From a virus (lineage: Duplodnaviria; Caudoviricetes): a stretch of DNA of 24,549 nucleotides. The notes below the pieces were generated by a model. The model searched no databases. It was given only the letters and a program-made list of their open reading frames with translations, and was not told the DNA's origin. Positions 5,247-24,549 of the stretch are shown here, piece by piece; within the stretch, counting starts at the first letter, position 1, and every line of letters begins with the position of its first letter. A program made the position numbers and the translations under genes. The stretch covers positions 1 to 24,549 of IMG/VR virus record IMGVR_UViG_3300047272_000342; one strand, given 5' to 3'.

Positions 5247-5257
5247 TACATTGAACA

Positions 5258-5296: not shown

Positions 5297-5330
5297 AGAA
5301 TCGTAAACCCACAAAAAACAAGGAGAAATT

Positions 5331-5936
5331 ATGCTCTCTCAAGCCGTACGCGAAGCATCAAAAACTGCGCACGTTGCAGCCGAGCGTAGCCCTTTCATGA
5401 CTGCATTGATGAAGGGTGATGTTGGCTCTGACGCCTACCGTGACTACCTAACTCAGCTTGCTCCAATTTATGAAGCCCTTGAAGCATGGGACGACAAGCG
5501 TAACCCTTGGCCGCTATTTGACCGTCGTCTTGATCGATTTGAGCGCATCATCTGCGACATCGAATCTCTTGGTGGTTCCGCTCTCGTTTGCGATGCAACT
5601 CTGGAGTACGCCGATCACATTAAGTCCCTGGTTGCATCTAACGACTGGGTGCGGCTTCTCGCTCACCACTACACCCGCTACCTCGGTGACCTATCGGGCG
5701 GGCAGGCAATTGCTTCCTTAGTTACTCGTAACCTCATGATTCCGCCGAACTTCCTATCTTTCTATGAGTTCGACTGTATCGATGACAAGGTTCGCTATAA
5801 AGAGACTTACCGTGAGAATCTAGATACCCTGGTTCCAGTAGAAGACTACCAATTGTTCATCGATGAAGTAGTAGCCGCGTTTGGCTACAACCAGAGAATT
5901 TTCGATGCTCTTGCTAAGCGCTGGTTGACAATCTAA
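5331..5936 (+). CDS. hmuO: Heme oxygenase (biliverdin-producing, HmuO/HO-1 family)
   Basis: Proximal His in SKTAHVAAERSPF, the IYEALE helix, the signature HHYTRYLGDLSGGQ, FYEF, and FIDEVVAAFGYN. Confidence 0.93.
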   Translation: MLSQAVREASKTAHVAAERSPFMTALMKGDVGSDAYRDYLTQLAPIYEALEAWDDKRNPWPLFDRRLDRFERIICDIESLGGSALVCDATLEYADHIKSLVASNDWVRLLAHHYTRYLGDLSGGQAIASLVTRNLMIPPNFLSFYEFDCIDDKVRYKETYRENLDTLVPVEDYQLFIDEVVAAFGYNQRIFDALAKRWLTI

Positions 5937-6497: not shown

Positions 6498-7904
6498 ATG
6501 GGTAAAAGCATTATGGAGATCCTCGCGTCTCTGCCAGAGGCAGAACGCATGGCGGCGCTCGAAGGAATGGATCCCGAGCAACTGCTCTGGGACTGGTCTG
6601 TCTGGGGTCGTCCAGAGCAGCAAGCTCCCGAGGGCGACTGGAACATCTGGCTTGTACTTGCAGGTCGTGGTTTTGGTAAGACTCGTCTAGCTTCCGAATG
6701 GGTTCGCGAACAAGCGAAGTATACCAATGAAGGCCAACGCCGTTTCGCACTTGTTGCCCGTACCGCAGCTGACGTACGTGACGTTATCGTTGAAGGTGAG
6801 TCGGGCATTATGAATGTCACCCCGCCTTCTGAGAAACCTCTATACGAACCTTCGAAGCGTCGTCTAACTTGGCCTAACGGAAACACAGCAACCCTATTCA
6901 CCGCGGATGAGCCTGACGGTCTTCGTGGTCCTCAGTTCACTCACGCATGGGGCGATGAGATTGCGGCTTGGCGTCAGACCCCCGATGCCGCAGGTATGAC
7001 CGCCTTCGACAACCTCCGAGTTGGTACTCGTCTTGGTAAGAACCCAAAGATTCTAGTTACCACCACTCCGAAGCGTACTCCGCTTCTCTACAAACTTATT
7101 GAAGAGCAAAAGACTGGCCGCGTTGCGATTACTCGTGGTTCAACCATGGATAACGCAGGTAACTTGTCTGGTGCCTACCTTGACACAATGCTCGGCGTAT
7201 ACGAGGGAACATCCCTTGCCCGCCAGGAGCTCTATGGTGAAATGCTTGAAGCCATGGAAGGCGCGATGTGGACCGAGGAAATGATCGAGGCTGGACGCGA
7301 AAGCATCTACCCGTTCTCCACTCCACTTCGCATCATTGGTGTTGACCCGTCTGTTGCCGAAAATCCTCGCGATGAGTGCGGAATTGTTGTTGTTGCATCT
7401 TCTGCAGAGCCAGATCTCTACAAACGTAACGCTTGGGTGCTTGAAGATGCTTCAGTACTCGGTTCACCGACTGTTTGGGCCCAAAGAGTCGTAGATATGG
7501 CAAGAAAGTGGGGTTGTCCCGTTGTTGCGGAAGTTAATCAGGGTGGTGCAATGGTACGCAACGCGATCAACACCATCGACCCATCAATTAAAGTACTTGA
7601 AGTCCACTCAAAGCAGGGAAAGCAGCTTCGAGCAGAGCCTATATCTCTGGCTTATGAACAACAGCGCGTCCATCACGTTGGTTACCTCGCTGATCTAGAG
7701 TCTCAGATGATTTCATGGGTGCCAGGTGAAGGAAAATCTCCTGACCGTATCGATGCACTCGTTCACGCGCTCACTGCGCTCCTAATTAAGCCTCCAGCAG
7801 GCTTTTCTGGTGGAAAACTACGCGCAAAAAGCTTCGCAGACCGAAAATTAGGGATAACAACCCCCAATAGCAGGCCTACAGGTCGAATTTTTAGGGTCAA
7901 ATAG
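6498..7904 (+). CDS. terL: Terminase large subunit
   Basis: Walker A LAGRGFGKT, LRGPQF...AWGDE Walker B, the VTTTP motif III, and nuclease domain IIGVDP, AEVNQGG, SPDRIDA. Confidence 0.95.
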   Translation: MGKSIMEILASLPEAERMAALEGMDPEQLLWDWSVWGRPEQQAPEGDWNIWLVLAGRGFGKTRLASEWVREQAKYTNEGQRRFALVARTAADVRDVIVEGESGIMNVTPPSEKPLYEPSKRRLTWPNGNTATLFTADEPDGLRGPQFTHAWGDEIAAWRQTPDAAGMTAFDNLRVGTRLGKNPKILVTTTPKRTPLLYKLIEEQKTGRVAITRGSTMDNAGNLSGAYLDTMLGVYEGTSLARQELYGEMLEAMEGAMWTEEMIEAGRESIYPFSTPLRIIGVDPSVAENPRDECGIVVVASSAEPDLYKRNAWVLEDASVLGSPTVWAQRVVDMARKWGCPVVAEVNQGGAMVRNAINTIDPSIKVLEVHSKQGKQLRAEPISLAYEQQRVHHVGYLADLESQMISWVPGEGKSPDRIDALVHALTALLIKPPAGFSGGKLRAKSFADRKLGITTPNSRPTGRIFRVK

Positions 7905-8254
7905 TGAAAATACTCTTAGATAGGTTTCCTTGCCACTTAGCCGCTATCGGGGCGGGAAAAGTGGAAGATGTGACCACAATGAGGAGTTTTGAGCCTACAA
8001 AAGGGTCAAATTACCTAGAAATCACTCGAGTTATAGTCACAGACACTTTAATTCTCATTGCCAAGGACGGTAATGACGGTCCCGAGATCGTATTTAAAGA
8101 GACCTACGACGAATTCATTCCATCTGACGAGCCAACTAAGGACTCTTTTGTTGTCACAACGTCTGGAAAGATGATAGCATTCAAAAAAGATACTGGCTGC
8201 GGGTGTGGATCACGCCTTAGGGGCTGGAATCCATACAAAACACTGAATACATAA
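7904..8254 (+). CDS. Hypothetical protein with a C-terminal GCGCG motif
   Basis: GTG start overlaps the terL stop. KKDTGCGCGSRLRGWNP near the C-terminus. Confidence 0.7.
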   Translation: MKILLDRFPCHLAAIGAGKVEDVTTMRSFEPTKGSNYLEITRVIVTDTLILIAKDGNDGPEIVFKETYDEFIPSDEPTKDSFVVTTSGKMIAFKKDTGCGCGSRLRGWNPYKTLNT

Positions 8255-8271
8255 CGACATGGAGTACTATT

Positions 8272-8562
8272 TTGGATTTTAGCTTAACTGTATTTGTAAT
8301 ATACTCGCTGGCTGCGTACAGAGTTACCAGATTTTTTGTTGAAGATGTTTTGTTCGAACCAGTACGCAATAAAATATGGAGTAAATTCCCTCCAAGCACC
8401 AAATTCGGATATCTACTCACCTGCTATTGGTGTTTAGGTTTCTGGGTAGCATTTTTCTTTATTATCATGGCCTACCTGCTACCTGAATTCACATTTGTGG
8501 TATCATTAATTTTGGCTATCTCTGCTTTGATCGGGTTAATCTCAACCCGACTAGAGCGATAA
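8272..8562 (+). CDS. DUF1360-like membrane protein
   Basis: LAAYRVTRFFVEDVLFEPVR ... GYLLTCYWCLGFW, about 3 hydrophobic segments, GGAG RBS. This family is typically seen between terminase and portal in actinophages. Confidence 0.75.
   Translation: MDFSLTVFVIYSLAAYRVTRFFVEDVLFEPVRNKIWSKFPPSTKFGYLLTCYWCLGFWVAFFFIIMAYLLPEFTFVVSLILAISALIGLISTRLER
8496..8506 (+). promoter_or_regulatory. Extended -10 promoter candidate for the portal operon
   Basis: TGTGG-TATCAT, about 75 nt upstream of the portal start. RBS AGGAG at about 8569-8573. Confidence 0.4.
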
Positions 8563-8580
8563 CAGTTTAGGAGCCTCATC

Positions 8581-10317
8581 TTGGGTATTTTCAAAAAGGA
8601 CAGCGGAAAGGCTAGAGAGTCTAGACCGAATCTACGCGCCTCTGCCCCAAAGAATGCAACGCGTGTTGCACCAGGAGTCTCTATAGACTCTTTCGGTATT
8701 GTTTACGCCGAGCCTCAGTCTTTCAACTCACCTCGTCCTATGACAGCTGCTGCTGCTCAAGTAAATCTTCAAGACAAGGGTGAAGCAGAACGCTTCAAGT
8801 CTCGTCGCCAGTCTGCTGACACCGCTTGGCAGTCAGAGGCCTGGGAATACTACGACGCAATCGGTGAAGTCAAGTACGCCTTTAATCTAGTTGCGTCTGT
8901 TGTGTCTCGTATTCGTCTTTATGCAGCTGCTATTGCAAACCCAAGCGAAGCACCTGCACCGATTGACTCTGTAGATAAGGTTGATTCTCGACTAGCTGCT
9001 GCCGCAGAGCGTGCTCTAACAAGACTAGACTCTGCTTTTGGTGGACAGGCTGGCCTTCTTAAGGATGCAGCGCTGAACTTGCAGGTGACTGGCGAGTGCT
9101 ATCTGGTTCAGGTTCCAGAGCGTCTTGGTTCTGGCTTACCAGAGTCATGGGACATCCGCTCTGTTGACGAACTCCAGGTCGACTCTAAGGGCAATTACGT
9201 CATCAACTCACGTCGTGACGTAAGCGGAAGCTCTTCTATGTTGTCGCAGGGTAACAAAGATGCACTTAAGCTACCTCAGAGTGCATTTGTTGGTCGCATC
9301 TGGCGTGCACACCCTCGCTACACTCAGGAGTCCGACTCTTCACTACGCGGTCTACTAGACCTCTGCGCCGAGCTTCTACTTCTAAACCGTACCTTCCGTG
9401 CAACTGCACGTTCACGCCTCAACGCTGGTGCTCTTTACTTACCAGATGGTCTATCAGTAGCTGCGTCTCCAGATCCAGACTACCCATACGACGAAGATGG
9501 CAACTACAACGAAGGCTTTACCGCCGAAGAAGCTGCCGATGACTTCGAAGACCAGCTCATCGATGCGATGACCACTCCGATTAAGGACGAGGACTCTGCT
9601 TCTGCTGTTGTTCCGCTAATCATTCGTGGTCCAGCAGAGCTTGGCGACAAGATCAAGCAGTTCAAGTTCGAGCGTTCATTCGACCCAGCCCTAGCTCAGC
9701 GTGCTGACCGAGTGCTAGAGCGCATCATGCAGGGTCTAGACGTCCCTAAAGACATCGTGACGGGTCTAGCGAACGTTAAATACTCTAACGCTCTTCAGAT
9801 CGATGAAAGCCTCTACAAGGCACACATCGAGCCTCTGATGCTGTTGATCGTTGACGCACTAACTGTTATGTACCTGCGTCCATACCTTATTGCAAATGGA
9901 TACACTCCAGACGAAGTAAAGAACGTTTGTATCTGGTACGACCCATCTCTAGTTGCTACCCGCAATGACCGTGCAGCCGATGCTGACATGGGCTTCGACA
10001 AGATGGCTGTGTCGTATGACGCATGGCGTCGCGCTCACGGATTCTCTGAAGCTGATGCTCCAGATGCCAAGGAGTACGCGCTACGTCTAATCGCAGCTAA
10101 GGGTATGGTTACTCCAGAAACTACAGAGGCTGTTCTTGCTGCAATTGCTCCAGACATTATGAATAGTGCTAGAGCGGCTTCGCAAGCTGCATCTCCTGCC
10201 CCTATTCCACCAGCAGTGGATGAGATTTTGCAGGAAGCAACTGGCGTACCAGCGCCTGGCGGTCAAACTGAAGAAACTACTCCCCCACCAGCACTAGCTG
10301 AGCCAGAGGAAGCGTAA
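8581..10317 (+). CDS. Portal protein
   Basis: 578 aa, two genes downstream of terL. Motifs WQSEAWEYYDAIGEV, GECYLV, RIWRAHP, RSRLNAG and SAVVPLIIRGP match actinophage cluster-B-like portals as I recall them. Pro/Glu-rich tail. Confidence 0.85.
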   Translation: MGIFKKDSGKARESRPNLRASAPKNATRVAPGVSIDSFGIVYAEPQSFNSPRPMTAAAAQVNLQDKGEAERFKSRRQSADTAWQSEAWEYYDAIGEVKYAFNLVASVVSRIRLYAAAIANPSEAPAPIDSVDKVDSRLAAAAERALTRLDSAFGGQAGLLKDAALNLQVTGECYLVQVPERLGSGLPESWDIRSVDELQVDSKGNYVINSRRDVSGSSSMLSQGNKDALKLPQSAFVGRIWRAHPRYTQESDSSLRGLLDLCAELLLLNRTFRATARSRLNAGALYLPDGLSVAASPDPDYPYDEDGNYNEGFTAEEAADDFEDQLIDAMTTPIKDEDSASAVVPLIIRGPAELGDKIKQFKFERSFDPALAQRADRVLERIMQGLDVPKDIVTGLANVKYSNALQIDESLYKAHIEPLMLLIVDALTVMYLRPYLIANGYTPDEVKNVCIWYDPSLVATRNDRAADADMGFDKMAVSYDAWRRAHGFSEADAPDAKEYALRLIAAKGMVTPETTEAVLAAIAPDIMNSARAASQAASPAPIPPAVDEILQEATGVPAPGGQTEETTPPPALAEPEEA

Positions 10318-10778
10318 TGGAACAGAACCTAACTAACGCCGATGTTGCGCAGAAGCTAGCCGTACTACTCTCGGATGTAGTTGTTGCTAAATTCATCATG
10401 CACGGATATCACTGGAATGTTTTAGGACCAGATTTTGGCGAGTACCACGAGTTCTTCGCAACTATCTACGAGGACTATGACGATTCAATTGATTTGATTG
10501 CAGAGAACATTCTCAAAGTTGGCTATGCTGCACCGTACTTACTCACAGACTTCCTAGAGATGTCATGCATCAAAGAGGAACGTCTAGGGGATGTCTCCTC
10601 TAGGGAGCTACTAGAGTCGGCACTTAGAGTTAATGCCCACCTGACCGAATGCCACTACTCAGCTTTTGCTGTAGCCAACGACGCCAACAAGCAGGGTTTA
10701 GCTGACTTTCTTGCTGGCAGAATTGACACTCTAGAAAAATGGAACTGGCAAATCAAGGCCTTCTTAGGAGTTCGCTAA
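10317..10778 (+). CDS. dps: Dps family mini-ferritin (DNA starvation/stationary phase protection protein)
   Basis: HGYHWNVLGPDFGEYHEFF...DLIAENI carries the ferroxidase-centre His/His/Asp/Glu. C-terminal LEKWNWQIKA. TAATG overlap with the portal stop. Confidence 0.92.
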   Translation: MEQNLTNADVAQKLAVLLSDVVVAKFIMHGYHWNVLGPDFGEYHEFFATIYEDYDDSIDLIAENILKVGYAAPYLLTDFLEMSCIKEERLGDVSSRELLESALRVNAHLTECHYSAFAVANDANKQGLADFLAGRIDTLEKWNWQIKAFLGVR

Positions 10779-12089: not shown

Positions 12090-14840
12090 ATGCTTGAAAC
12101 TTTTTCACTAACCGCTGACGGTAACTCAGCCGCCGCCCGTAGAGCCCGCGTAGCACTTCAGCCTCGTGACAAGTACGGACGTTGGGTTCCGACTGGTGCT
12201 AGCTTGTTTGCTGGCCTAAGCGCTCTTGGCTCTGTTGTTAACGTCCGAGGAAAAGCTATCGGTGGAACTAACAAAAAGGGCCAGATCAGAATGTTGGTCG
12301 GCAGCGGATACGAGAAGTACGGCATCAAGCCGAATACAGTTCTGACCGTTGACTCTAAGAACGGTGAGCTTTTCTCTGGTGCAGTTCTAGACAAGAACTT
12401 CCTGAAGAAGAAGGGAATTAACCCTGACCTTCGACACAGTCTTCCAAAGAATCTGGTAGACCAGCCTCAGACTCTTGACAAGATGGACCCTCAGCCAGCT
12501 GACGAGTTAGACATTGATCTAGCTACAAATGGTCTTAGCGATGACGAAGACAAAGATCTAAAGGCTGAACGCGACAAGGAGCCTCTAGCAACTCTTCCGC
12601 CAGCGATGGAAGTTGCAGAAGGCGAAGAAGTTGCAGACATCGTTGAGGCAGCTGAGCAGGGCAAGACTAAGCCAGCGTCTATTGGCGACCAGGATGCTGC
12701 CGACATTGCTGCATCTGATGCACTTGGAGAAATCTTCTATGGTGGAGATGCTCCTTCTGTAGAAGACCTAATCGACAAAGCTGCTACCCCTACACCTGCT
12801 GCTCAATCAGACGACACAGGTATTGCTGACTTAAAGCCAGGCGACATGGTGCTTCTACAGGGCCGTCCAATGAAGGTTGAGTCTGTGAAGCAGCGCGCGC
12901 TCTCTGGCGGCTGGGACCTAATGGTAGATGACGGCACTGGTCGAGGACCAGTAAACGTTGCAGACCCTAAGAGATTCCCTAATGGCATCCCAGCCAATGC
13001 AACTCTAAAGAAACTTAAGACAGGTGCTGCCCCTGCAGCTACAACTAAGCCTGCAGCTGTCAAAAAAGCTGACGATGCAGCGCCTGCTGCTCCAACCGCG
13101 CCTGCTGCTCCAACAGCACCTAAGCAGGTTACCAAGCCAGCTCCGAAGGCTAAAAAAGTTACCAAGCCAAAAGCAACTCTTCCTACTATCCCTAAGGGTA
13201 GAGAAGATGATGGCAAGGATGTTCCTCGCAATTTGAACTCTCAGGAGCAAATGCGTCAGACGCCTATTGCTCAGATGTTTGACGACAATGGTAACCCACT
13301 ATTTAAGCGCGATAACAAGGGCAAGCGAGTAGCTGCTCAAGATTCTAACGCTATCTACAATGCTCTCTTAGAGCAGAACCCTCAGGCTAAGGTAGACAAG
13401 TCGGGGCACATCATCCTAGAGCGTGGCACATTTACCGACAAGGATGGTAAGAAATATAAGTACGAAGTAGCGGTAGCTAAAACCCACGGCAACCAGTACA
13501 TGGAACGCTACACTTTCACCGATGAGGCGACTGGCGAAAAACAGTCCTTTTACCACTATGACTACAAGGACTCATTCGCAGCTATCTACGGCGAGGACAA
13601 TGGTGTAAACGTATTCCGCGACATCATCCTTGGCGAGCGTATGCCAGGCAAGCCAGGCTCTAAGATGACTCGAGAGAAAGAGTTCTATTTTGGAGACAAG
13701 TCCACTCTAGCTAAGCGATTGATGTTCTTCCGAGGTAAGAAGTCTACTGGCACAGAGATTACTGATGACATGCTTGATGATTCAAACTTCAAGCTGCTCA
13801 CCCCAGAAGAGGTCGTGCGTAAGTACCTCAATGGACGCGGTGAGAAACTTAACATGGCTGAAGGAAAAGCCAAGGGAACTAAGCTTCAAAGCTTTGTTGG
13901 CAGCGCATGGGAAGCTATCGAAGCCGATGACATGGAAGTATTCCAGCAGCGTATGGTCCAGCTACTTGGCCGCCTACCTGACAACGAGGAATCAAGATCT
14001 CTACTTGTCAACACTCTTAGGGACCAAATCAAGAGTAAGTTCAATGGAACACCTCAGGGGCGAAAGCTAGCACCTCTTGCTAATAACATTGAAAAAGCCA
14101 TCATGTCTGATGGTCTAGATCTGCGCGACATTCAGCGACGCCCCTGGGCCTCAAAGGATGGCAAAACAATTCTTAAGGTTGGCGACAAGGTTCGCTACTG
14201 GAACAACGTTGGTGAGTGGTCTATCGGTGAGGTAGTCAGACTTCGCGAACCTCGTAAGGGTTACGACGACATTGTTGCTGTTAAATTTGCTAACGGGACT
14301 CAGAACGTTCTACGCGCTAAGTACATGGATGTTCTAGGAGACGACCTAGACACCGAACTAAACTTGCACGACAAGGATAGCGATTCCACTGACTACATAG
14401 CATCTCTAAAGAATGATGCGCTCCGCGAAGCACGCGGTATCTTCCTAGACTTCGGCGACGCTCTGAAGCAAGAAGACGACAGTCAAAACGCACCTGCTGG
14501 CGCTCCAGTAAACACCACTAACCCTAACGCTGGGCAGCCTTACTTAGGTTCAGATGGTGTAGATGCAGATGCCCCTGCAGCCGATGTTGCAGATCAAGCA
14601 GATGCAGAGGAGCCTGCAACCGAGGCCGAACCAGAAGCACCAGCAGAAAGTAATATCTCTGACTTGGCGGCTGGAGATGCTTGGTATAGCGATGAAGGTG
14701 ACTACTTAGGAACTTTCGTTGAGGCGCAGGTTGTCGAGGCGGATGACGGCACACAAGCATGGGCTGTTATCTACCTGGATGAAGATGGTGATGAGCAGCT
14801 CGAGATCGTTAATCTCGAGGAGTCACGCCTCCCAAAATAG
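12090..14840 (+). CDS. Large head-associated multidomain protein (0-frame product; N-terminal part of a frameshift fusion)
   Basis: About 916 aa; ATG 12090 is better spaced from AAGGA than ATG 12084. Contains N-terminal QPRDKYGRW, three KOW/SH3-like barrels (DLKPGDMV, LKVGDKVRY, DLAAGDAW), and Ala/Pro/Lys and acidic linkers. Ends CTC CCA AAA TAG. Confidence 0.8.
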   Translation: MLETFSLTADGNSAAARRARVALQPRDKYGRWVPTGASLFAGLSALGSVVNVRGKAIGGTNKKGQIRMLVGSGYEKYGIKPNTVLTVDSKNGELFSGAVLDKNFLKKKGINPDLRHSLPKNLVDQPQTLDKMDPQPADELDIDLATNGLSDDEDKDLKAERDKEPLATLPPAMEVAEGEEVADIVEAAEQGKTKPASIGDQDAADIAASDALGEIFYGGDAPSVEDLIDKAATPTPAAQSDDTGIADLKPGDMVLLQGRPMKVESVKQRALSGGWDLMVDDGTGRGPVNVADPKRFPNGIPANATLKKLKTGAAPAATTKPAAVKKADDAAPAAPTAPAAPTAPKQVTKPAPKAKKVTKPKATLPTIPKGREDDGKDVPRNLNSQEQMRQTPIAQMFDDNGNPLFKRDNKGKRVAAQDSNAIYNALLEQNPQAKVDKSGHIILERGTFTDKDGKKYKYEVAVAKTHGNQYMERYTFTDEATGEKQSFYHYDYKDSFAAIYGEDNGVNVFRDIILGERMPGKPGSKMTREKEFYFGDKSTLAKRLMFFRGKKSTGTEITDDMLDDSNFKLLTPEEVVRKYLNGRGEKLNMAEGKAKGTKLQSFVGSAWEAIEADDMEVFQQRMVQLLGRLPDNEESRSLLVNTLRDQIKSKFNGTPQGRKLAPLANNIEKAIMSDGLDLRDIQRRPWASKDGKTILKVGDKVRYWNNVGEWSIGEVVRLREPRKGYDDIVAVKFANGTQNVLRAKYMDVLGDDLDTELNLHDKDSDSTDYIASLKNDALREARGIFLDFGDALKQEDDSQNAPAGAPVNTTNPNAGQPYLGSDGVDADAPAADVADQADAEEPATEAEPEAPAESNISDLAAGDAWYSDEGDYLGTFVEAQVVEADDGTQAWAVIYLDEDGDEQLEIVNLEESRLPK
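13080..13114 (+). repeat. 18-nt-period tandem repeat in a linker (APAAPT x2)
   Basis: GCGCCTGCTGCTCCAAC at 13080-13096 and 13098-13114. Confidence 0.8.
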
Positions 14841-14885
14841 ATAGGGCTGCAGTTGGCCCACAAGATGGGACACCAGCTACAGCCC
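14817..14885 (+). promoter_or_regulatory. Programmed -1 ribosomal frameshift signal 1 (SD-like, slippery heptamer, stem-loop)
   Basis: GAGGAG 14817-14822, in-phase C CCA AAA 14831-14837, a 6-nt spacer, then the stem GGGCTG-C-AGTTGG-CCCA / CAAGA / TGGG-ACA-CCAGCT-A-CAGCCC at 14844-14885. Confidence 0.85.
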
Positions 14886-16978
14886 CTGCTCCGAAAGTAG
14901 CTCCAAATCTAGCTAGTAAGAAATTCGACCTAGCTGGAATTAGAGATCTCAAGAAAAAGGGACCAGGTAGACCTAGGACTACCCCTATTGACCCTAGCTG
15001 GCACGACCTTCGCGCAATCGAGTCTTATATTTATGACAGCATCCCTGCTGGCCACGATTTCGACAAACTAGAGGAGCTTATTTCGGATGTTCGGGCTGCC
15101 CGCACTGACGGAGATACAGATGCGTACGCTACCGCACTTCGCGACCTTCTCAAGTTTCACTATGACAGCTTTGATGCAGCTAACGCATATAAGTCGCCGC
15201 TTGACTTAGTTAAAGCCGACAGATTCATGTCACCTCGTGAAGTTGCTAAAGTAGCTGGATTCCTTCACAATAAAGACCGATCTGGAACTAGCCCTAAAAC
15301 TTACGATGAAGTTAAGTCGGAGTTGGCTAACGAGCTTCGTACAAAAATCCCTCGTATCTCTAGCATCCTAGCCGCACTCGGCGGAGACTGGAAAGCAGAA
15401 GGTGCACTAGAGCTAATTGACCGCTACGAGTCAGAGTTCGAGCAAGCCTATAAGGATGCTGGACTATCTGGATCAGAGGCTAAGTTCCGCGCTCAGGCAA
15501 AGGCTGCAGCTAAGGTGCGCAAGATGATGGACTCTCCATCTACCGCGCACATAAAGCTCTCTTCGGCTTCTGACAATGCTGACATTTTTGTGTACATGGA
15601 CACTGGCCTACCAGCTGGGTCACCATATGCTCCAATTATTGATGACACAGAGGCTTCTGCGATTCTCGGCGGTATCCGAAAAGCTAGAGCTAACAGATTC
15701 AACAAGGATAGGGTAGTTATCCACGCTTTGGCTGGCGGTACGGACCTACCTAAGGCAGTAGCATCACAGATAGGCGAGGGCGATGCTGCATTCACCTTCC
15801 ACCCTGGTGGTAACGGTGGAGTATTTATCTACCCTAAGAAGATAACTGCCATTGGCAAAGATTTGTCGTTCAACCCTAAGTGGTACTCTACTGATGTTTC
15901 GTCTGTAGAGGCTGCCTATCAGCACATCATTGTTCACGAAACTGGCCACTTAATGATGTACAAACACTGGGGTTCAGACAAGGATAATGGTAGAGCGTCC
16001 CTAGTTGCTGACATCAAGAAATTTAAGGTGGCTGGCGGAGCAAGCGAGTATGGTGACCAGAGCCCATCGGAGAACTTTGCAGAGCAATACGCTAAGTACC
16101 TGCTGACTGGTGACGCAACTCCAGAATTCTTAGCCTTGCTAGAGTCTAAGGGTCTAACTAAGGCTCAGATAAACAAGAAGTGGAGAGACGCTTACAAGAC
16201 AGAGTCTCACTCTAAGTTCTTCGACTTCCTAGACAAGATCTGGGAAGATGATAAAGCTCAGTTCATTCCAGAGTTCAACGGGCCAGAAGCATCCGAATAC
16301 TCTAAGTATAAGAAGTTTGGAGCTGGTAGAGTCCACAAGTTAGCTAGACTACTCGGGTTCACAAATAAGAAGCCTCAGCTAATAGACTCCGTTCCTGACG
16401 ACAAGTACAAAATTTGGCGAGCAGTAGATAATATTGACCGTGATGGAGTTAATGTCCCAGCAGAGCAGCTGCACGATGAGTATCTGACTCTAGATAAGCC
16501 TTGGTTCGGATATGGAATCTACGGAGATGGCCAGTATTTTGCAGCTCACGAAGGTGACACTTACAGCTTCGGTCAGTATGCTATGGCTTTTTCTCTAGAC
16601 CCTAACGCTAAGGTGTACGTTTACGGCAGACGTTACGGCTCGGGCGGAATCTATAGCCCTGTAAACAATGGCAACTACGATGTAGAGAAATTCAGCTCTG
16701 AATTGCAGAGTAGCTTGCTCAGGGAGGTAGTTCTGAACGAGATAGCTCCTGATGCTACTGAAGCAGAGATTCGAGTAGAGATACAGCTTCTCAAGAGTAA
16801 ACTCGGACTTACTGGTGATTCTCAGCACGATGCATCTATTTTGGCTGGAATGTTTGGATTCCAGGGCATAGAAGTTGTTGGAGGCGGTACTTCTAGCTAC
16901 ATTGTTGCACTTGATAGAAGCATGATAAGGATGCCTAAGCCTAGAAAAGACCTACTTAGAACAAGTAGATCTAGATAA
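14837..16978 (+). CDS. -1 frame extension (713 aa): HEXXH metallopeptidase plus ADP-ribosyltransferase-like domain
   Basis: Frame is open from 14813 to 16978 with no ATG/GTG/TTG before 15227. Peptidase motifs: HETGH 15935-15949 and SEY...SENFAE 16043-16084. ART-like motifs: IWRAV, GYGIYGDGQYF, GFQGI and YIVALDR at 16412-16918. Confidence 0.75.
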   Translation: MDRAAVGPQDGTPATAPAPKVAPNLASKKFDLAGIRDLKKKGPGRPRTTPIDPSWHDLRAIESYIYDSIPAGHDFDKLEELISDVRAARTDGDTDAYATALRDLLKFHYDSFDAANAYKSPLDLVKADRFMSPREVAKVAGFLHNKDRSGTSPKTYDEVKSELANELRTKIPRISSILAALGGDWKAEGALELIDRYESEFEQAYKDAGLSGSEAKFRAQAKAAAKVRKMMDSPSTAHIKLSSASDNADIFVYMDTGLPAGSPYAPIIDDTEASAILGGIRKARANRFNKDRVVIHALAGGTDLPKAVASQIGEGDAAFTFHPGGNGGVFIYPKKITAIGKDLSFNPKWYSTDVSSVEAAYQHIIVHETGHLMMYKHWGSDKDNGRASLVADIKKFKVAGGASEYGDQSPSENFAEQYAKYLLTGDATPEFLALLESKGLTKAQINKKWRDAYKTESHSKFFDFLDKIWEDDKAQFIPEFNGPEASEYSKYKKFGAGRVHKLARLLGFTNKKPQLIDSVPDDKYKIWRAVDNIDRDGVNVPAEQLHDEYLTLDKPWFGYGIYGDGQYFAAHEGDTYSFGQYAMAFSLDPNAKVYVYGRRYGSGGIYSPVNNGNYDVEKFSSELQSSLLREVVLNEIAPDATEAEIRVEIQLLKSKLGLTGDSQHDASILAGMFGFQGIEVVGGGTSSYIVALDRSMIRMPKPRKDLLRTSRSR

Positions 16979-17000: not shown

Positions 17001-17285
17001 ATGGTCGATTATAAGAAACTTAGCGCAGAGTATTCACAGAGGTTTGGCTATGCAATATCTGCAGCAACGCACTCTGACTACTTCAGTGTTGATGGTAAAA
17101 CTTGGGACCTAACCGCTGACTGGACTAAAGATGCCAATCACGTATTCGCGGCGGAAGATTTTCAGGCCTATATTTTCAATCAAATAAAGATTATAACTGC
17201 TCCCTCAAACAAGAAGCCACCTACAATGGAGCAGCTTCCAGAAGAGCTTAGGGCTTGGCTATTGAGAGTAGAGGCTAGAGGCTAA
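17001..17285 (+). CDS. Hypothetical protein (candidate immunity/antidote protein)
   Basis: 94-aa ORF directly after the effector-like domains. Function is inferred from position only. Confidence 0.55.
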   Translation: MVDYKKLSAEYSQRFGYAISAATHSDYFSVDGKTWDLTADWTKDANHVFAAEDFQAYIFNQIKIITAPSNKKPPTMEQLPEELRAWLLRVEARG

Positions 17286-17467
17286 TGGCTGAAAGAAAGC
17301 ACAAAACTGTATTTACTTTCGTGGCAGACAACGTCACGGGCGAGCTTGGGGATAAAGAAGTCACCATAGACTTGTCTAAAATCTCAGATGATGAGCTAGA
17401 TCAACTAATCTTTAAGATCCCAGAGGCAACCTCCGAGATCGTTTACCGCGAAATATACGGTCAATAG
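17285..17467 (+). CDS. Hypothetical protein
   Basis: 60 aa, TAATG-coupled to the upstream gene. Confidence 0.6.
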   Translation: MAERKHKTVFTFVADNVTGELGDKEVTIDLSKISDDELDQLIFKIPEATSEIVYREIYGQ

Positions 17468-17546: not shown

Positions 17547-17912
17547 ATGGCAAAAAACAGCATTGTAGACGTATGGTTCTACGTAAATCCTGAAACTCAG
17601 GTGGTTGATGCTGCCATCTGCTACTTTCCGCTGGGTGTGTCCAAGCGTGTTGACTCCGACTGGGAGTTCACCAACAAAGAAGAAGCTGGCCTATACGGCG
17701 AGCTAGCTGCCCACGACGTGTATCAGTTGAACTGGGAAACTGATCCTAAAACTATTGACGACTCTTTCGACTTCGACAACTATGACGATGCGAATCACGA
17801 AGCAATTAAGCTGTTTGACAAGGGAGAACTTACATTAGAGTCTCTAAAAGAGTACTCGGAGTTCCTATACAGTGGTTCCGAATTAGGATCGGCTGAAGAC
17901 GGCGAGGAGTAG
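17547..17912 (+). CDS. Hypothetical acidic protein
   Basis: 121-aa ORF whose 3' end supplies the GAGGAG RBS for the next gene. Confidence 0.7.
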   Translation: MAKNSIVDVWFYVNPETQVVDAAICYFPLGVSKRVDSDWEFTNKEEAGLYGELAAHDVYQLNWETDPKTIDDSFDFDNYDDANHEAIKLFDKGELTLESLKEYSEFLYSGSELGSAEDGEE

Positions 17913-17913: not shown

Positions 17914-20900
17914 GTGTTCAAATTCCTAGGGTTAACTGAGAATCTAGCGGTTTTCAGTGGCGATAAAGTTTATGCTGTTGTAGATACAGCTAAGAACCTG
18001 GTTCAAGACATGAGCCAGGTTGAAATTCAGGCGCTCATTGCATCTGCGTCTCTTGCAACTAACAATGTTGTAGTTTCTGATTCGGTCGTAGAGCTAGCTA
18101 AGGCTGCTTTAGTAGTGCCAGAGTCCACAATCACAGCATCTGGTGATCGTATGTACACGATTCCAGCTGGAGTTCAAGACGAGGCTGTTAGAGGTCTCGA
18201 ATGGCGCAAAGAAGAGAAGCGCGGCGGCACCCCTGTCGGTCTCAACACAGCTAGAACTCTAGCCGATGGTGGGCAAATAGGTATCAAAAAGATCCGCCAC
18301 ATCGCTAAGTACTTCCCTCGTCACGAAGTTGACAAAAAGGGCAAGGGCTGGGCACCTGGTGAAGACAACTTCCCGTCTAACGGCCGTATCGCTTGGGCTC
18401 TTTGGGGTGGTGACGCCGCTTGGCGTTGGGCTCGTGCAATCGTAGAGCGTGAGAACAAAAAAGCGCTCACATCTACTGGCTATGCTTTGCCAGGTTACGA
18501 AGATGATATCGAGACTTACGGGTATGGTACTGGCTACGATGCTGACCTAAACCCATTTAAAATTGCACATGAGCTTGACTTAAACGTTGGGCCAGAGTTT
18601 ATGGCGCGCGTGCGTTTAGATGGCTCTGGTATTGACCGTCTATACAAGATCGAGATCGATGGTCGCGTATATATCTGGGACGACTGCGGCTGGGATGACC
18701 TTGGCCACGTAGATGGTGACGTCTACACATACGACAAGGCTTTAGATGACCCGTATGATTTGACAGAGACAGATCACGTAATCATTGACCCTTCTGCTGC
18801 TGTAATTATTTCTGCCTTCTTCCAGGAGAGACCTAACCAGCCAGTACTTCTGATCGAAATTGATCCAGAAGAAACTATGCTTATGTCTGATGGCCTATAC
18901 GAAGAAGACTTCGACATGGTCGATAGAGTTATGACCGCTGCAGGCGAGCCAGTAACTAACCAAGACGGCAACTACACCCCTGACGAGCGCTCTGATAAAG
19001 CTGCTAAGCAGGTTAGAGATGCTTCTGGTAAGTTCGCTAAGGCTGGCTCCCGTGTAGTTGTCGCTGGCGACGAAAACCGTGGCTCTGGAGTGATTGAAAG
19101 CGTTGACAGTAGCACTGGCTTAGTCTCAGTTAAATTGGACAGCGGTAGCACTATCGAGGTAGATGCTAAATACACTCGTGCTGAAGAAGCTCCTACTACT
19201 GGACCTAGACGAGTTCCTACTATTCAGGCACCTCTAGACATGTCTGGTGTTCTTGGCGTACCTAGGACTTCAGGTACATCTAAGAAGGCGCAGCTTCCTG
19301 GCACTCTCCCAGTCATGACAAATGCAGACATCGCTCTGATGATCAGCGACTGGCCAGCGTACGTCGCAAAGCAGCGTGCTGCTTACAAGCTTCACAGTGA
19401 CACTGACCCTGGCATCAAAACCGTAACCAAGGGAAAACAGTCTACGGCTCCTGGTCTATCAGAGTACGACAAAAAGTACATGAAGAAGAACTACGACCTA
19501 GATATGTCGGCTGAGGGTATTACTGCTTCTGCAGAAGAGTCTGATGAAATCAACTCTCCTAAGGAGTCTGATGTACCAGCTAAGTACCTAGCTTTAGTGT
19601 CACCTGATGACAGCACTGCTGTTATGGACCTTGTTGCTATCGTTCCAGAGACAAAAACCACTACAGCTCCTGCTCTATATAGACGAGAAGCTGGTAAGTG
19701 GATTAAAGATGACCAGATCCTTATGGACCTCAAGTCAGCTACTCCTCCAGACGTAGTTGAGCTAGATGATCAGGCTATTCTAAATGATGTTCTCGTTCAG
19801 ACTGATTCTGCAATACAGGCGTCTGGCTACCTAGACTTTTCTATCTTCTGGGAGACTACCGTTGAGCCGATCTTGGCGGCTGGTGGACTAGACCGCAACC
19901 GCGAAAACGCTGAGGAGCTTCGTAAATACTGGACCCGCGGCAAGGGTGCACTAAAGATTCGTTGGGGAACCCCTGGCGACTGGACTCGTTGCGTTCGCAA
20001 TCTTTCAAAGTACATGGGCGCTCGCGCTAAGGGGTATTGCCAGCTTCGTCACAAGGAAGCAACTGGTGTCTACACTGGAAGTAAGCTAAACCCTGGGAAA
20101 AAGAGCCAGAGCTTCAGCACACTATTCCAGACTGAAGCAGACTTCGATAAAGTAATTACTCAGCGCGCAGTTCTAGCTGCTAGAGCAGCAGACGCACGTG
20201 AAAAGGTTGGACTAGTGGCAGGAGCCGTTAAGCCTACAGAGGGCGCTAAATTCCACATCCCTATGATCGTTCCAGAAGAGATGGAATCGGGAGATGGTCG
20301 TAAGTTCTCAAAGGATGCCATCACAACTAGAGAGCTACCACTGCCTCTTCTATGGCAGATTAAGACTGGTGCTGGGCACGACGGGTCTGTTGTAGTTGGT
20401 CGCATCGACTACATCGAAAGAATTGAAGGCGGAATGGGTAATGCCTATGGTGTTTTTGATACTGGACCTTATGGCCGTGAAGCTGAACGACTAGTTAAGC
20501 ACGGGTTCCTTCGTGGAGTTTCAGTAGACCTTGACCAGTTCGAGGCTAAAGAAGACAAGAGACCGACTGACGAAGCATCAGAAGACGATGGTCACATCGG
20601 TAAGGACAAACTTACTATCAATAAGGCTCGCATAATGGCTGCTACAATTGTAGCAAAGCCTGCATTCCAGGAATGCTCTATTTATCTCCAAAATTCAGGG
20701 GACCAGGAGGAAGAAATGACCCCAGAGGATGGCGTGTACGAGGAGTCTCTAGAAGACTTCAGCGACGTCGAACCTATCACAGCTTCTGGCTACCTTGCGT
20801 CAGAGATTCCAGTTGCTCCACCAGCTGAATGGTTCGAAAATCCAGGCCTAACTAAGGCCACACCACTTACCGTTGACAAAGATGGCCGTGTCTATGGACA

Positions 20901-22008
20901 CATTGCTGCTTGGCACGTAAGCCACATTGGACTTCCACGTTCAACCAAGCCACCACGTTCGCGCAGCAAGTACGCCTACTTCCACACTGGCGTGATCCAC
21001 ACTGCAGTTGGCACCGATGTTCCTGTTGGTCAGCTAACTCTAGCTGGAGGCCACGCTCCTCTAAATGCTGACGCTGCTTCTGCTGCAAAGCACTACGATG
21101 ACACTGCTTCCGCTGTAGCTGACGTCCACATGGGTGAAGACGAGTACGGCATTTGGTGTGCTGGCTCACTACGCCCAGGCGTAGATGAGTACCAGGTTCG
21201 CGCACTACGCGCTTCTGCTCCTTCAGGAGACTGGCGTCCAATCAATGGCTCACTTGAGCTAGTTGCAGTTTGCCAGGTTAACGTTCCAGGATTCCCTGTT
21301 GCTCGTGCGATGATCGCGTCTGGCAAGGTACTAGCACTAGTAGCCGCTGGTGCTAACTACATGGCAATGATGAAGAGTAACGTTGTTAGCTCTCTAGTTG
21401 CTAAGGCAGATCTTCTAGGTCAACTATCATCTAGCGCTCCTGACCTAAAGTCTCGCGTTAAGACTGCTGAACGCAAACTGCGTGAGGCAAACATAGAGGC
21501 ACTAACAGCTAGTGCTGCGGAGATGCGCGAGAAGGCTTTAACTGCTGCTGCTATTGCAGAGTTGGCAAAAATCTCTGAAGAAGAGCGTATGGATCTAGCT
21601 AAAGATGGCAAAGCAATGCCTGATGGTGCTTACCCTATCCGTGACACCGAAGACTTGAAGAATGCGATTCAGGCATACGGACGAGCAAAAGCATCTGAGC
21701 GTGCAGCAGTGCGTAAGCACATCATAAAGCAGGCTCGTAAGCTAAAGCAGTCTAGCCTCATCCCACAGCACTGGGTTAACGCAGACTCCATGGAAGCCGC
21801 ACAGCGTGTAGCTAGTATGCGAGCAGCAATTACAGCCGCTGCCGTTCGAGGCGAGAACCCTTGCTGGGACGGTTATGAAATGATTGGAATGAAAGAGCAG
21901 GACGGCAAGTCAGTTCCTAACTGCGTTCCTATCGATGCAGCATCTGCATCCGAGGAGGTGGTGGTTTCAGCCGCCCCAAAAGTGAGGAGATCTCCGACTC
22001 AGAGCTAA
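17914..22008 (+). CDS. Multidomain capsid maturation (prohead) protease polyprotein (0-frame product)
   Basis: 1364 aa upstream of the capsid gene. HK97-like protease domain at about 20245-20680 (ESGDGR, LPLLWQ, GHDG His 20377, GVSVD Ser 20521, VAKPAF). A second conserved domain has VYGHIAAW...HYDDT...SGDWR...VNVPGFP. Several small accessory modules. Confidence 0.85.
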   Translation: MFKFLGLTENLAVFSGDKVYAVVDTAKNLVQDMSQVEIQALIASASLATNNVVVSDSVVELAKAALVVPESTITASGDRMYTIPAGVQDEAVRGLEWRKEEKRGGTPVGLNTARTLADGGQIGIKKIRHIAKYFPRHEVDKKGKGWAPGEDNFPSNGRIAWALWGGDAAWRWARAIVERENKKALTSTGYALPGYEDDIETYGYGTGYDADLNPFKIAHELDLNVGPEFMARVRLDGSGIDRLYKIEIDGRVYIWDDCGWDDLGHVDGDVYTYDKALDDPYDLTETDHVIIDPSAAVIISAFFQERPNQPVLLIEIDPEETMLMSDGLYEEDFDMVDRVMTAAGEPVTNQDGNYTPDERSDKAAKQVRDASGKFAKAGSRVVVAGDENRGSGVIESVDSSTGLVSVKLDSGSTIEVDAKYTRAEEAPTTGPRRVPTIQAPLDMSGVLGVPRTSGTSKKAQLPGTLPVMTNADIALMISDWPAYVAKQRAAYKLHSDTDPGIKTVTKGKQSTAPGLSEYDKKYMKKNYDLDMSAEGITASAEESDEINSPKESDVPAKYLALVSPDDSTAVMDLVAIVPETKTTTAPALYRREAGKWIKDDQILMDLKSATPPDVVELDDQAILNDVLVQTDSAIQASGYLDFSIFWETTVEPILAAGGLDRNRENAEELRKYWTRGKGALKIRWGTPGDWTRCVRNLSKYMGARAKGYCQLRHKEATGVYTGSKLNPGKKSQSFSTLFQTEADFDKVITQRAVLAARAADAREKVGLVAGAVKPTEGAKFHIPMIVPEEMESGDGRKFSKDAITTRELPLPLLWQIKTGAGHDGSVVVGRIDYIERIEGGMGNAYGVFDTGPYGREAERLVKHGFLRGVSVDLDQFEAKEDKRPTDEASEDDGHIGKDKLTINKARIMAATIVAKPAFQECSIYLQNSGDQEEEMTPEDGVYEESLEDFSDVEPITASGYLASEIPVAPPAEWFENPGLTKATPLTVDKDGRVYGHIAAWHVSHIGLPRSTKPPRSRSKYAYFHTGVIHTAVGTDVPVGQLTLAGGHAPLNADAASAAKHYDDTASAVADVHMGEDEYGIWCAGSLRPGVDEYQVRALRASAPSGDWRPINGSLELVAVCQVNVPGFPVARAMIASGKVLALVAAGANYMAMMKSNVVSSLVAKADLLGQLSSSAPDLKSRVKTAERKLREANIEALTASAAEMREKALTAAAIAELAKISEEERMDLAKDGKAMPDGAYPIRDTEDLKNAIQAYGRAKASERAAVRKHIIKQARKLKQSSLIPQHWVNADSMEAAQRVASMRAAITAAAVRGENPCWDGYEMIGMKEQDGKSVPNCVPIDAASASEEVVVSAAPKVRRSPTQS
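21952..21981 (+). promoter_or_regulatory. Programmed -1 ribosomal frameshift signal 2
   Basis: GAGGAGGTG 21952-21960, 14 nt, then in-phase C CCA AAA 21975-21981. The 0-frame stop comes after 8 more codons. Confidence 0.8.
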
Positions 22009-22645: not shown

Positions 22646-22760
22646 AGTAAGGTAAAATTATCGTAGGTAGAGCGCCTCACGTATTGTTGCGTCGAGTCCC
22701 TCGGCCTTGACTGTAAATCAAGGGCAAATTGCCCAAACACTAACTGGCCTAGGAGGTACA
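22646..22760 (+). promoter_or_regulatory. Capsid gene promoter, structured 5' leader and RBS
   Basis: GG-TAAAAT (hexamer 22653-22658), hairpins at 22676-22696, 22705-22723 and 22722-22734, and SD AGGAGGT at 22751-22757. Confidence 0.55.
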
Positions 22761-24549
22761 GTGTACGACCAAATTAAAACTCAGCTAGATACTCTAGCCG
22801 AGCTAGGTGACGAACAAGTCGCCGAGCTTCAGGCAGAGATTATCTCGCAGTTTGAAATGGTTGAGGGTGAAGACCCGACTCCTGAGACAGTTGATGCTAT
22901 GACATTGTTAGCTGATTCTCTTGACATGGTTCGCGGCGAGCTTTCTCGCCGTGAGACAGCAGCCGCTGAACTTGCAGCGAAGGCTGCAGAAGCTGTTGCT
23001 CGTGTAAAGGGTGACGCTGACAGTGAGGGAGAAGAAATGGCTATTACTGAAGACGAGCCTGTAGTAGAGGAAACTCTAACAGAGGAAGCTCCAGCAGAAG
23101 ACGTAGTTCCAGCCGAAGAGGAAGCCCCAGCTGCGGAAGAAATTCCAGCAGAAGAGGAGACCACTGAGGAAGAGGCTACAGAAACCGAAGAAGAGGAAGA
23201 CAAAAAGGAGGAAGAAATGTCTACCGATGAAACAATTCAGGCATCTGCTTCTGACGAGTCAACCGCTGAGGTTGCTGCTGTCGCAGAAACTGTAGAAGAG
23301 ACCGCTGCTCCAGAGGCAGAGCTTTCAGCAACCGATGAGGTTGCAGAAGCTCCAGTCGAAGAAGCTGTCGTAGAAGCGCCAGTCGAGGCTGAAGCTGCAG
23401 TTGAAGAAACTGTAGTCGAAGCAGCCGAGGCTAGCGAAGCATCAACCGCTCAGGAAGACGGTTCTGAACTATCAACCACCACAGAGGAAGCCACTGAGCT
23501 TTCAACTGAAGTTACTGCAGAGGCAGTTGCTGAAGTTGAGACCGCTGCAGAGCTATCATCTGACGAAACTATTGAAACACCAACCGCTCTTTCGGAAGAA
23601 GAGCAGAATCAGGAGCAGGCAGTGACCGCTGCAGCAGAACAGCCTTTCGAGGCACCAGCTGACCGTCAGCCTGTAGTTCAGGAAATCGCTAACCCAGTGG
23701 CAATCACCGCTGGTGCAGACATCCCTGGTTACAGCGCGGGAAGCACCGTAAATGACCTAAACGAAGTTGCATCTCTTATGGAGAAGCGCCTTCACTCACT
23801 ACGCCGTGTTAACGGTGGCGACGGAGAGCAGCACATTGTTGCATCGTTCTCTACCTCATACTCTGAGGACCGCTTCCTAGGCACCGACGCTGAGGCTAAC
23901 ACCGCTAAGATCAACGCGAGCACCGCTCTTGTTGCATCTGGTGGCCACGCTGCTCCAGCTGAGGTTAAGTACGATATCTTCGGTATCGGCTCAACCACCA
24001 ACCGTCCAGTTCGTGACGCACTTCCTAAGTTCCAGGCAGACCGTGGCGGTATCCGCTTCGTAACCGCTCCTTCATTCGCAGCTGACACTTATGCTGACGC
24101 TGTTGGTGTATGGACCGCTGCAAACGACTCAGCTGAGACTCCTAGCCCATCGGCTAAGACCTCTCTAACTGTTTCTGCTGCTCAGGAGAACGTTGCTGTT
24201 ACTGACGCTGTAACCCTACAGCTACAGTTCGGTAACTTGATGACCCGTGCGTACCCAGAGCTAATCGCTCGCCACAACGAACTTGCTCTTGTACAGCACG
24301 CTCGTGAGGCAGAAGTTAACCTTCTATCGAAGATTAGCGCAGCTTCAACTGCAGTTACTTCTGGAACCCTAATCGGTTTTGGTCGCGACTTCTTGGTATC
24401 TGTACGCAAGGCAGCTGTTGCTTACCGTTCACGTCACCGCATTGCTCCAACTACCAAGTTGACTGCAATCGTTCCTGACTGGATCTTCGATGCAATGGCT
24501 TCTGACCTAGCAATCGCGATGCCTGGCGACAACACCATTGGTGTTAGCA
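22761..24549 (+). CDS. Major capsid protein with a long acidic N-terminal scaffold-like region (partial, runs off the window)
   Basis: GTG 22761 after AGGAGGT, with 596 stop-free codons to the window end. MYDQIKTQLDTLAEL..., an E/A/T-rich tract, ITAGADIPG, then ALVASGGHAAPAEVKYDIFG...RPVRDALPKFQADRGGIRF...FGNLMTRAYPE. This resembles cluster-B-type actinophage capsid proteins. Confidence 0.88.
   Translation, partial: MYDQIKTQLDTLAELGDEQVAELQAEIISQFEMVEGEDPTPETVDAMTLLADSLDMVRGELSRRETAAAELAAKAAEAVARVKGDADSEGEEMAITEDEPVVEETLTEEAPAEDVVPAEEEAPAAEEIPAEEETTEEEATETEEEEDKKEEEMSTDETIQASASDESTAEVAAVAETVEETAAPEAELSATDEVAEAPVEEAVVEAPVEAEAAVEETVVEAAEASEASTAQEDGSELSTTTEEATELSTEVTAEAVAEVETAAELSSDETIETPTALSEEEQNQEQAVTAAAEQPFEAPADRQPVVQEIANPVAITAGADIPGYSAGSTVNDLNEVASLMEKRLHSLRRVNGGDGEQHIVASFSTSYSEDRFLGTDAEANTAKINASTALVASGGHAAPAEVKYDIFGIGSTTNRPVRDALPKFQADRGGIRFVTAPSFAADTYADAVGVWTAANDSAETPSPSAKTSLTVSAAQENVAVTDAVTLQLQFGNLMTRAYPELIARHNELALVQHAREAEVNLLSKISAASTAVTSGTLIGFGRDFLVSVRKAAVAYRSRHRIAPTTKLTAIVPDWIFDAMASDLAIAMPGDNTIGVS

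Follow-up and report, generated by a model that had tools for sequence, protein, structure and literature searches.

How does the long reading frame behind the stop codon of a phage head-module gene come to be translated? The question is raised by the viral record IMGVR_UViG_3300047272_000342 (Duplodnaviria; Caudoviricetes), whose whole stretch of 24,549 nucleotides (nt) is referred to here as "the window". An open reading frame (ORF) located between the portal gene and the protease and capsid genes, ORF A, ends in a TAG codon, and the −1 frame continues from there for 713 codons. A preliminary description, made from the letters of the DNA, took this junction (here, "site 1") for a textbook −1 frameshift cassette that fuses ORF A to an effector extension. 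We find that site 1 is very probably a programmed −1 ribosomal frameshift, and that the feature is widely conserved among relatives of this phage. The elements of the predicted cassette are as follows.

12090..14840 (or from ATG 12084), + strand: ORF A, the putative carrier protein, 916 amino acids (918)
14817..14822, + strand: Shine-Dalgarno (SD)-like GAGGAG, 8 nt upstream of the heptamer and without letter conservation, possibly a weak helper
14831..14837, + strand: predicted slippery heptamer C_CCA_AAA (Pro-Lys), in the register of the 0 frame
14838..14840, + strand: 0-frame stop codon TAG, part of the 6-nt spacer
14837..16978, + strand: −1 frame extension of 713 codons (amino acids), with the predicted junction R-L-P-K / I-D-R-A-A
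14844..14885, + strand: predicted stimulatory hairpin of 16 bp, GGGCTG (14844-14849) pairing with CAGCCC (14880-14885), 6 nt past the heptamer

The 0 frame terminates as CTC CCA AAA TAG, and the −1 frame, bounded upstream by a TAA at 14810-14812, is open through 16978; these positions are exactly as the preliminary description had placed them. The 16-bp stem-loop that it proposed 6 nt downstream is also there (14844-14885), with a folding energy of −24.5 kcal/mol (z = −2.89) that is equalled by 2 of 200 shuffled sequences. No pseudoknot partner for the hairpin loop or bulge was found within 74 nt, and no U tract was found 3' of the stem. The earliest ATG, GTG, or TTG of the extension is codon 131 (15227), which had been said to lack an SD sequence; the anti-SD duplex at this position is merely −0.2 kcal/mol. 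Eleven invariant extension residues precede the first ATG that the extension has in the window, and the homologues have no start codon in common. For ORF A itself, ATG 12090 has a better SD sequence (−4.8) than ATG 12084 (+0.8). The claimed products of 916 and 1629 amino acids hold if ATG 12090 is the start; the carrier would have 918 amino acids if translated from ATG 12084.

In the explanation that we favor, a ribosome with CCA in its P site and AAA in its A site would meet the stem 6 nt downstream, re-pair on CCC AAA, and read on through ATA GAT AGG. Such tandem slippage (tRNA-Pro from CCA to CCC, tRNA-Lys from AAA to AAA) is the mechanism that we hold with high confidence. One gene would then give rise to a 916-residue carrier and a 1629-residue form with predicted zinc protease and ADP-ribosyltransferase (ART)-like cargo, and the long form would probably be packaged into the head of the phage and from there reach the host. 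Taken as a whole, from slippage through the enzyme-bearing long form to head packing and delivery, this explanation is likely. Stop codon readthrough was also considered and was rejected, as it yields just a short 0-frame tail.

Could site 1 have arisen by chance or by error? It is more than chance. In the 15 genes of the window, in-register heptamers of the form XXXYYYN (Y = A/T) occur 12 times in 6968 codon positions, and the one at site 1 is the sole case with a strong hairpin (−24.5 vs −3.2 to −12.3 kcal/mol elsewhere). Internal Pro-Lys dicodons in both frames of 15 close loci (see below) are never spelled C_CCA_AAA (0 of 146). Site 1 is also not an assembly error: contigs from three of three runs of other studies (X3, X7, and X8) span it with no gap, so that the indel named in the preliminary description as a refutation was absent. 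This check was made on assembled contigs, with run X1, possibly the source of the record, not counted as independent. A recently broken gene, or an error, would be compatible with the existence of relatives that have in-frame forms. However, the three independent runs bridge the site without a gap, and the same architecture recurs in the window and 30 shifted loci of a wider family, whose 31 extensions form 24 groups at 90% identity; we give this reading next to no probability.

Searches with the carrier protein or a carrier alignment recovered 16 distinct contigs, L009 included. In 14 of them, the carrier ends in C CCA AAA TAR, followed by the GGGCTG..CAGCCC stem and a −1 frame of 702-1002 codons; the other two, L006 and L045, have a single gene of ~1370 amino acids with a different HExxH tail. 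A scan for the DNA pattern gave 14 matches, comprising 12 cassette loci and two unrelated ones (L010 and L023) that have unrelated short frames and were discarded as chance. The L023 match (1599-1650) is in an unrelated phage, where the cassette pattern, including the CAGCCC arm, lies between genes. For statistics, we used 15 loci, i.e., the window, 11 pattern matches, and three metagenome loci, leaving out L016 as a near-duplicate of L013. The pattern is present in all 15 by selection, and all except L015 and L017 were recovered by the carrier-protein search too. Pairwise carrier identity within this set extends down to 32%, with a median of 46%.

In these 15 loci, the constraint on codon choice is focused on the junction. 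Of the 93 carrier residues that are invariant, only three are encoded by one codon throughout, two of them being the heptamer's Pro and Lys; for the extension, the equivalent number is two of 51 (I1 and A4). Hence, four of the five single-codon invariant residues from both frames together flank the shift site, and the windows of lowest synonymous change in both frames coincide with it. The codon preceding CCA varies in the amino acid that it encodes (L, V, G, or S), with a third base that is always C. At all 15 loci, the hairpin window exceeds all 94-124 other 50-nt windows of both frames in stability, and the spacing of the hairpin arms is 21, 24, 27, or 30 nt, always a multiple of three. The base of the stem (GGGCTG/CAGCCC) is kept in the close clade, with a variable sequence in the upper stem. 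The check on stem covariation that had been proposed was borne out for pairing, with 96% of cells paired across seven sequences of equal length, and fell short for strict covariation, with one compensatory pair among 12 and a score matched by 19 of 500 shuffles.

The word "textbook" goes too far for the SD-like sequence, which lies 8 nt rather than 9-14 nt from the heptamer and whose letters are not conserved. The best upstream SD duplex at the 15 loci, 6-10 nt from the heptamer, has an energy between −2.2 and −8.9 kcal/mol; only in six of 15 homologues does it fall in the top 1% of background. Judging from this pattern of conservation, the conserved putative stimulator at site 1 is the hairpin, not the SD sequence, and a purine-rich stretch before the heptamer may help in some lineages.

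Does the arrangement recur among relatives retrieved through an unrelated gene? With the protease tail as the query, 47 loci were obtained regardless of site 1, seven of which lack the protease start. Of the 40 assessable loci, 30 have a −1 junction (nine of these being contigs already in the carrier-protein set), nine have single in-frame genes, and one is unresolved. The heptamer of the 30 shifted loci is C_CCA_AAA in 16 and A_AAA_AAA in 14. A G+C stem lies 3' of the heptamer in all 30, the score being that of the most favorable of three window sizes relative to local background, a choice that inflates the result; an upstream SD sequence is in the top 3% of background at seven of the 30. Thus, the letters change while the XXXYYYZ pattern and the stem distance stay, as tandem tRNA slippage predicts. 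Letter turnover with a kept pattern is predicted neither by a separate downstream gene nor by stop-dependent pausing.

These loci bear on three other ways of expressing the downstream frame. First, the ribosome might pause at the stop codon, with slippage of the peptidyl-tRNA-Lys alone; the product would be the same, and the supply of release factor would set the ratio. In 11 of the 30 loci, as in the window, a stop codon does come right after the heptamer, but the other 19 have one sense codon in between, with no change in hairpin distance. Moreover, slippage of a single tRNA has no need of the upstream C and the CCA, both of which are invariant in the close clade. We consider stop pausing improbable. 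Second, RNA polymerase might slip on the C3A4 or A7 run and insert an extra base, which would make the shift transcriptional. Polymerase slippage usually requires ~8-9 A or T; a run of seven A is present in 14 of the 30 loci, but the run in the window has merely four, and the heptamer is always in codon register with the hairpin at ribosome distance. This makes for a very unlikely account. Third, the downstream frame might be a gene of its own, with initiation at an internal ATG or, by translational coupling, at the ATA that overlaps the stop codon. In keeping with this, ATA is invariant as codon 1 in 15 of 15 close loci, and gene callers list the extension as standalone proteins. However, the called starts disagree in every record (profile positions 13-101), and each of the nine full-length relatives that the protein library contains is a fragment with a shifted start. 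Between the SD sequence and the ATA there are 14 nt, and the frame enters a strong stem after 7 nt. Many distant loci open the frame with AGT, AGC, AGA, or ACC, not ATA, and in-frame fusions exist. A separate gene has a very small chance of being correct.

The fusions are natural single-chain proteins that join carrier and protease (P0080, P0077, P0138, L048, and L049). In a carrier tree, single-gene forms occupy several places among shifted forms, with five label changes compared to a shuffled mean of 14.8; the tree holds 35 of 42 rows (seven lack the core) and is rooted at its midpoint, and no order of events is claimed from it. Together with conservation, synonymous constraint, and heptamer turnover, the in-frame fusions lend strong support to the −1 frameshift reading of the preliminary description. 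One relative, phage DSL-LC01 (L029), has an in-register slippery heptamer at codon 2213, inside a single gene of 3289 amino acids.

What would the long form carry? The predicted domains of the extension, and the small ORFs that follow it, are listed here.

15533..16171, + strand: predicted zincin-like metallopeptidase, H367-E368-x-x-H371 plus E412/E416, invariant in 12 of 12 aligned homologues
16295..16951, + strand: putative ART-like domain with invariant R528, G563-x-G565-x-Y567, and E679, weak fold matches
17001..17285, + strand: small ORF s1, 94 amino acids, candidate inhibitor or partner
17285..17467, + strand: small ORF s1b, 60 amino acids, candidate protease partner
17547..17912, + strand: small ORF s2, 121 amino acids, found across several cargo types

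The structure model of the extension is confident (pLDDT, the predicted local distance difference test, of 82) and consists of a disordered linker (residues 1-52), a helical region (53-232), the zincin, and the C-terminal ART-like domain. A search of cultured phages (tblastn) gave no match to the extension, a profile search of the PDB gave nothing below E 0.5, and Foldseek gave nothing at E <= 0.001. The zincin domain fits its class, with an HExxH helix and a later Glu helix on a three-stranded sheet; Iyer et al. call this fold class "MPTase" (PMC5512222). By Atlas features, the C-terminal domain groups with ART-PolyVal clusters (0.93), and one of 12 members has a PARP match (E 3e-4). The ART-PolyVal Pfam model, PF18760, has no match in the window and weak matches in two of 25 profile relatives; a MuF domain is also present in five of the 25. 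In place of the H-Y-D clade triad, there are invariant Arg, Tyr, and Glu residues, with the strand assignment being a reading of the model. We call the C-terminal domain ART-like and assign it to no named clade. As for the "effector" of the preliminary description, the presence in one open frame of two effector-type domains, an HExxH zincin fold and an ART-like fold, supports the term as an inference. The best fold match of the 16295-16975 model is a cyanophage A4 pre-ejectosome chain (9k3a_B), at a weak Z of 5.5.

The cargo differs between relatives, a point absent from the preliminary description, as are the small genes linked to the cargo and a second site at 21975 (described below). Cargoes behind the cassette fall into eight groups, 263-1036 codons in length. 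Six relatives have ArdC-N and MPTase-PolyVal in the −1 frame, and two have a 263-codon cargo without HExxH. Four of 12 close cargoes have a kinase-like insert of ~300 residues, recognized by motif; in these four (L014, L015, L017, and L021), it occupies extension residues ~400-690, where it separates the HExxH helix from the third zinc ligand. L006, whose carrier has no frameshift, encodes a VIP2-type ART (3-1067; PF03496, E 7e-17) just upstream of its terminase. The small genes follow the cargo. Of 40 loci, nine have both s1 and the ART module, 31 have neither, and none has just one of the two. Related protease cargoes are followed by s1b whether or not an ART is present. The two small genes are fused in L009, L025, L026, L082, and L087.

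ORF A has no Pfam match above the cut-off, no PHROG match, and no Phage_Mu_F match; its core gave no usable match in an Atlas search, and tblastn against cultured phages gave a weak N-terminal match only. Its N-terminus carries two motifs, LTADG and QPRDKYGRW. The latter is an instance of RDxxG[RK][WFY], which is found at residue 28 of ORF A, residue 368 of the protease, and residue 61 of a second extension (described below), and is absent from the remaining proteins of the 15 window genes. It also occurs at the N-termini of the equivalent genes in cultured Microbacterium phages, and it is possibly a capsid-targeting tag. The former belongs to the broader motif [LIVM]-x-A-[ASGD]-[GA], which has, between 8581 and 24549, 11 copies in the protease, three in the capsid protein, and one each near the N-termini of the portal and ORF A; katG and NlpC have one each. 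Packaging of the carrier is suggested by its gene position, the RDxxG[RK][WFY] motif common to protease and tail, and the LTADG-like N-terminal motif. We lean toward a head-internal carrier, with the shift fixing the ratio of carrier to cargo.

Delivery and a host target are suggested by analogy to polyvalent proteins and T4 Alt (PMC9503650, available in part). It is possible, and falls just short of an even call, that the cargo acts on host proteins after injection, with s1 and s1b keeping it inactive during assembly. Conversely, the frameshift may be real and the cargo not directed at the host, the protease being self-processing or structural, or the ART striking protist grazers as a "Trojan horse". 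Autoproteolysis has been proposed for such proteases by Iyer et al. (PMC5512222), a Trojan horse has been proposed for VIP2-type ARTs of freshwater phages by Kavagutti et al. (10.1101/670067), and the two 263-codon cargoes lack HExxH. However, the ART-like domain of the window has no match to PF03496, the VIP2-type model, and resembles the ARTs of polyvalent proteins, and the ART is accompanied by a dedicated small gene, as would suit a target within the bacterium. A cargo not aimed at the host is rather unlikely.

Several observations weigh against the favored explanation, in its recoding part or its cargo part: (i) the upstream frame has no BLAST match to ORF A in six of the 30 shifted loci; (ii) cultured Microbacterium relatives have one long gene in the carrier slot; (iii) no full-length fused proteins of 1263-3605 amino acids were found, in a search that was weak; (iv) strict covariation of the stem is thin, and the SD sequence is off-spacing and not conserved; (v) the extension of the window has no Pfam or PHROG match above the cut-off; (vi) the zincin matches lethal-factor, PPEP, and YbeY-type zincins with moderate strength (Z of 8-10), and the ART-like domain, despite many ART-fold chains among its top rows, reaches a Z of only 4-5; and (vii) the nine loci with s1 and the ART come from related phages and are not independent.

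Which known systems does site 1 resemble? The slip sequence of Lactobacillus phage A2 is reportedly CCCAAAA. Frameshift-extended virion proteins are known from A2, T3/T7, and Listeria phages, with two such events in A2, in the major head and tail proteins (PMC5009743, available in part). A2, T3/T7 gene 10, and Ig-like extensions likewise involve a short and a C-terminally extended form produced by a −1 shift. Unlike in A2 and T7, the carrier gene here is not that of the major capsid protein, and the extension has 263-1036 codons; moreover, A2/T7-type extensions are structural or Ig-like additions to major head or tail proteins, whereas those described here are predicted enzymes that are swapped among relatives. 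E. coli dnaX, IS911, and carboxysome cso2 likewise combine an XXXYYYZ heptamer with a downstream stem. According to the available part of the Atkins review (PMC5009743), an internal SD sequence 9-14 nt upstream stimulates −1 shifting, C_CCA_AAG is highly shift-prone in E. coli, and cso2 apparently lacks an SD sequence. Unlike dnaX-type sites, site 1 ends in AAA, not AAG, and has no conserved SD sequence at 9-14 nt. ORF10 of Enterococcus phage phiEf11 is likewise a virion-protein gene that ends in A_AAA_AAA, TAG, and a stem-loop, for which a shift has been proposed (PMC5221750); the extension there is 21 amino acids, unconfirmed by mass spectrometry in the portion of that paper available, compared with 713 codons here.

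The predicted product has counterparts of a different kind. Polyvalent proteins, whose hallmark domains include ArdC-N and MPTase-PolyVal, are likewise large, multidomain proteins with a zincin MPTase and an ART, encoded in a portal-terminase module (PMC5512222, in part). Unlike them, the domains of the window match neither PolyVal Pfam model, and the residue on the first strand of the ART is apparently Arg, not His. MuF polymorphic toxins likewise have a carrier encoded in the head module, an enzyme that varies at the C-terminus, and a small gene downstream; in that family, a short form and a long form are encoded by separate genes of different phages (PMC5576092, in part), whereas here both forms would come from one gene. 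Among the models compared (Phage_Mu_F and PHROG, without the MuF3 and MuF4 of that paper), none matches the carrier. By its sequence features, then, site 1 would be akin in operation to the dnaX device and the A2/T7 extensions; its product would be similar to polyvalent proteins and MuF toxins but would not belong to the MuF family. We found no paper, in a search mostly of open literature without supplements, that describes a frameshift appending polyvalent or toxin-type cargo, and the word "frameshift" is absent from the main texts, in the parts available, of PMC5512222, PMC9503650, PMC5576092, PMC10611076, and 10.1101/670067. It is possible that the supplements to the papers of Iyer et al. 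and Kavagutti et al. include these proteins.

Does the window hold a second such site? The only other CCCAAAA on the + strand lies near the end of the protease gene (here, "site 2").

17914..22008, + strand: prohead (capsid maturation) protease-like polyprotein, predicted 0-frame product of 1364 amino acids
21953..21964, + strand: strong SD AGGAGGTGGTGG, 10-14 nt before the second heptamer
21975..21981, + strand: second heptamer, C_CCA_AAA, eight codons before the protease stop codon
21981..22643, + strand: second −1 extension, 220 amino acids, which site 2 would open

Site 2 has an SD sequence within the 9-14 nt range and no strong stem in the window, and contig X10, from another study, spans it with 20 substitutions and no gap. 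The second-extension domain is present in 53 records, in frame with the protease in 47, split in four (the window, L009, L026, and DSL-LC01, where it is a separate gene), and cut off in two. In DSL-LC01 (L029), the protease is encoded as three separate genes. The heptamer is retained at 15 of 49 junctions, 14 of them with an SD sequence of −9.6 to −16.1 kcal/mol, in 12 cases at 11 nt. A shift at the 15 heptamer-keeping junctions would extend the protein in three (the window, L009, and L026) and truncate it after 2-13 codons in the other 12, i.e., with the reversed polarity; dnaX has reversed-polarity cases that the latter resemble (in the part of the literature available). The SD sequence of site 2 is spelled GTG GTG, which is used at none of 98 other Val-Val pairs in the same genes. 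Four relatives (L057, L060, L066, and L067) keep GTG GTG but have CCG AAA in place of CCA AAA, which a shift at the second site does not explain.

The phage frameshifts known so far yield tail chaperones or append structural domains to proteins of the virion. More tentatively, the two sites may belong to a frameshift-dosed polymorphic effector system, run by a freshwater actinobacterial phage family, with the following parts: an excess of head-internal carrier, a constant share of which receives its load through −1 slippage; interchangeable cargoes (protease, ART, kinase, or ArdC); a cognate small inhibitor gene for each cargo; and a reversible second site that sets the ratio of long to short prohead protease. 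If true, the device doses swappable, enzymatic anti-host cargo, linking recoding to polymorphic effector systems, and gene callers truncate such effectors. The natural variants are a test series for the rules of −1 shifting in Actinobacteria, since they include two heptamers, stop codons that are adjacent or not, SD- and hairpin-driven sites, both polarities, and in-frame fusions.

Finally, the setting of ORF A is a phage head module, comprising terminase (6498-7904), portal (8581-10317), a Dps-like gene, ORF A, protease, and capsid.

6498..10317, + strand: terminase large subunit and portal, context
22707..24549, + strand: major capsid protein, running off the end of the window

The capsid protein has its best matches in DSL-LC01, a lake-derived Actinomycetia phage, and in large Microbacterium phages; the sequencing runs richest in window DNA are freshwater and estuary metagenomes; and one relative sits in an Actinomycetota metagenome-assembled genome. 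Based on these three observations, we infer an actinobacterial host. The phage itself, as far as the searches reached, is uncultured. No tRNA genes were found in the window, where AAA is the minority Lys codon (125 vs 285 AAG). The AAA of the heptamer would suit a host that has a separate AAG-reading tRNA. An NlpC/P60 gene lies upstream of the head module, genes for a catalase-peroxidase and a heme oxygenase adjoin it (3054-5936), and a Dps-like ferritin is encoded inside it (10317-10778).

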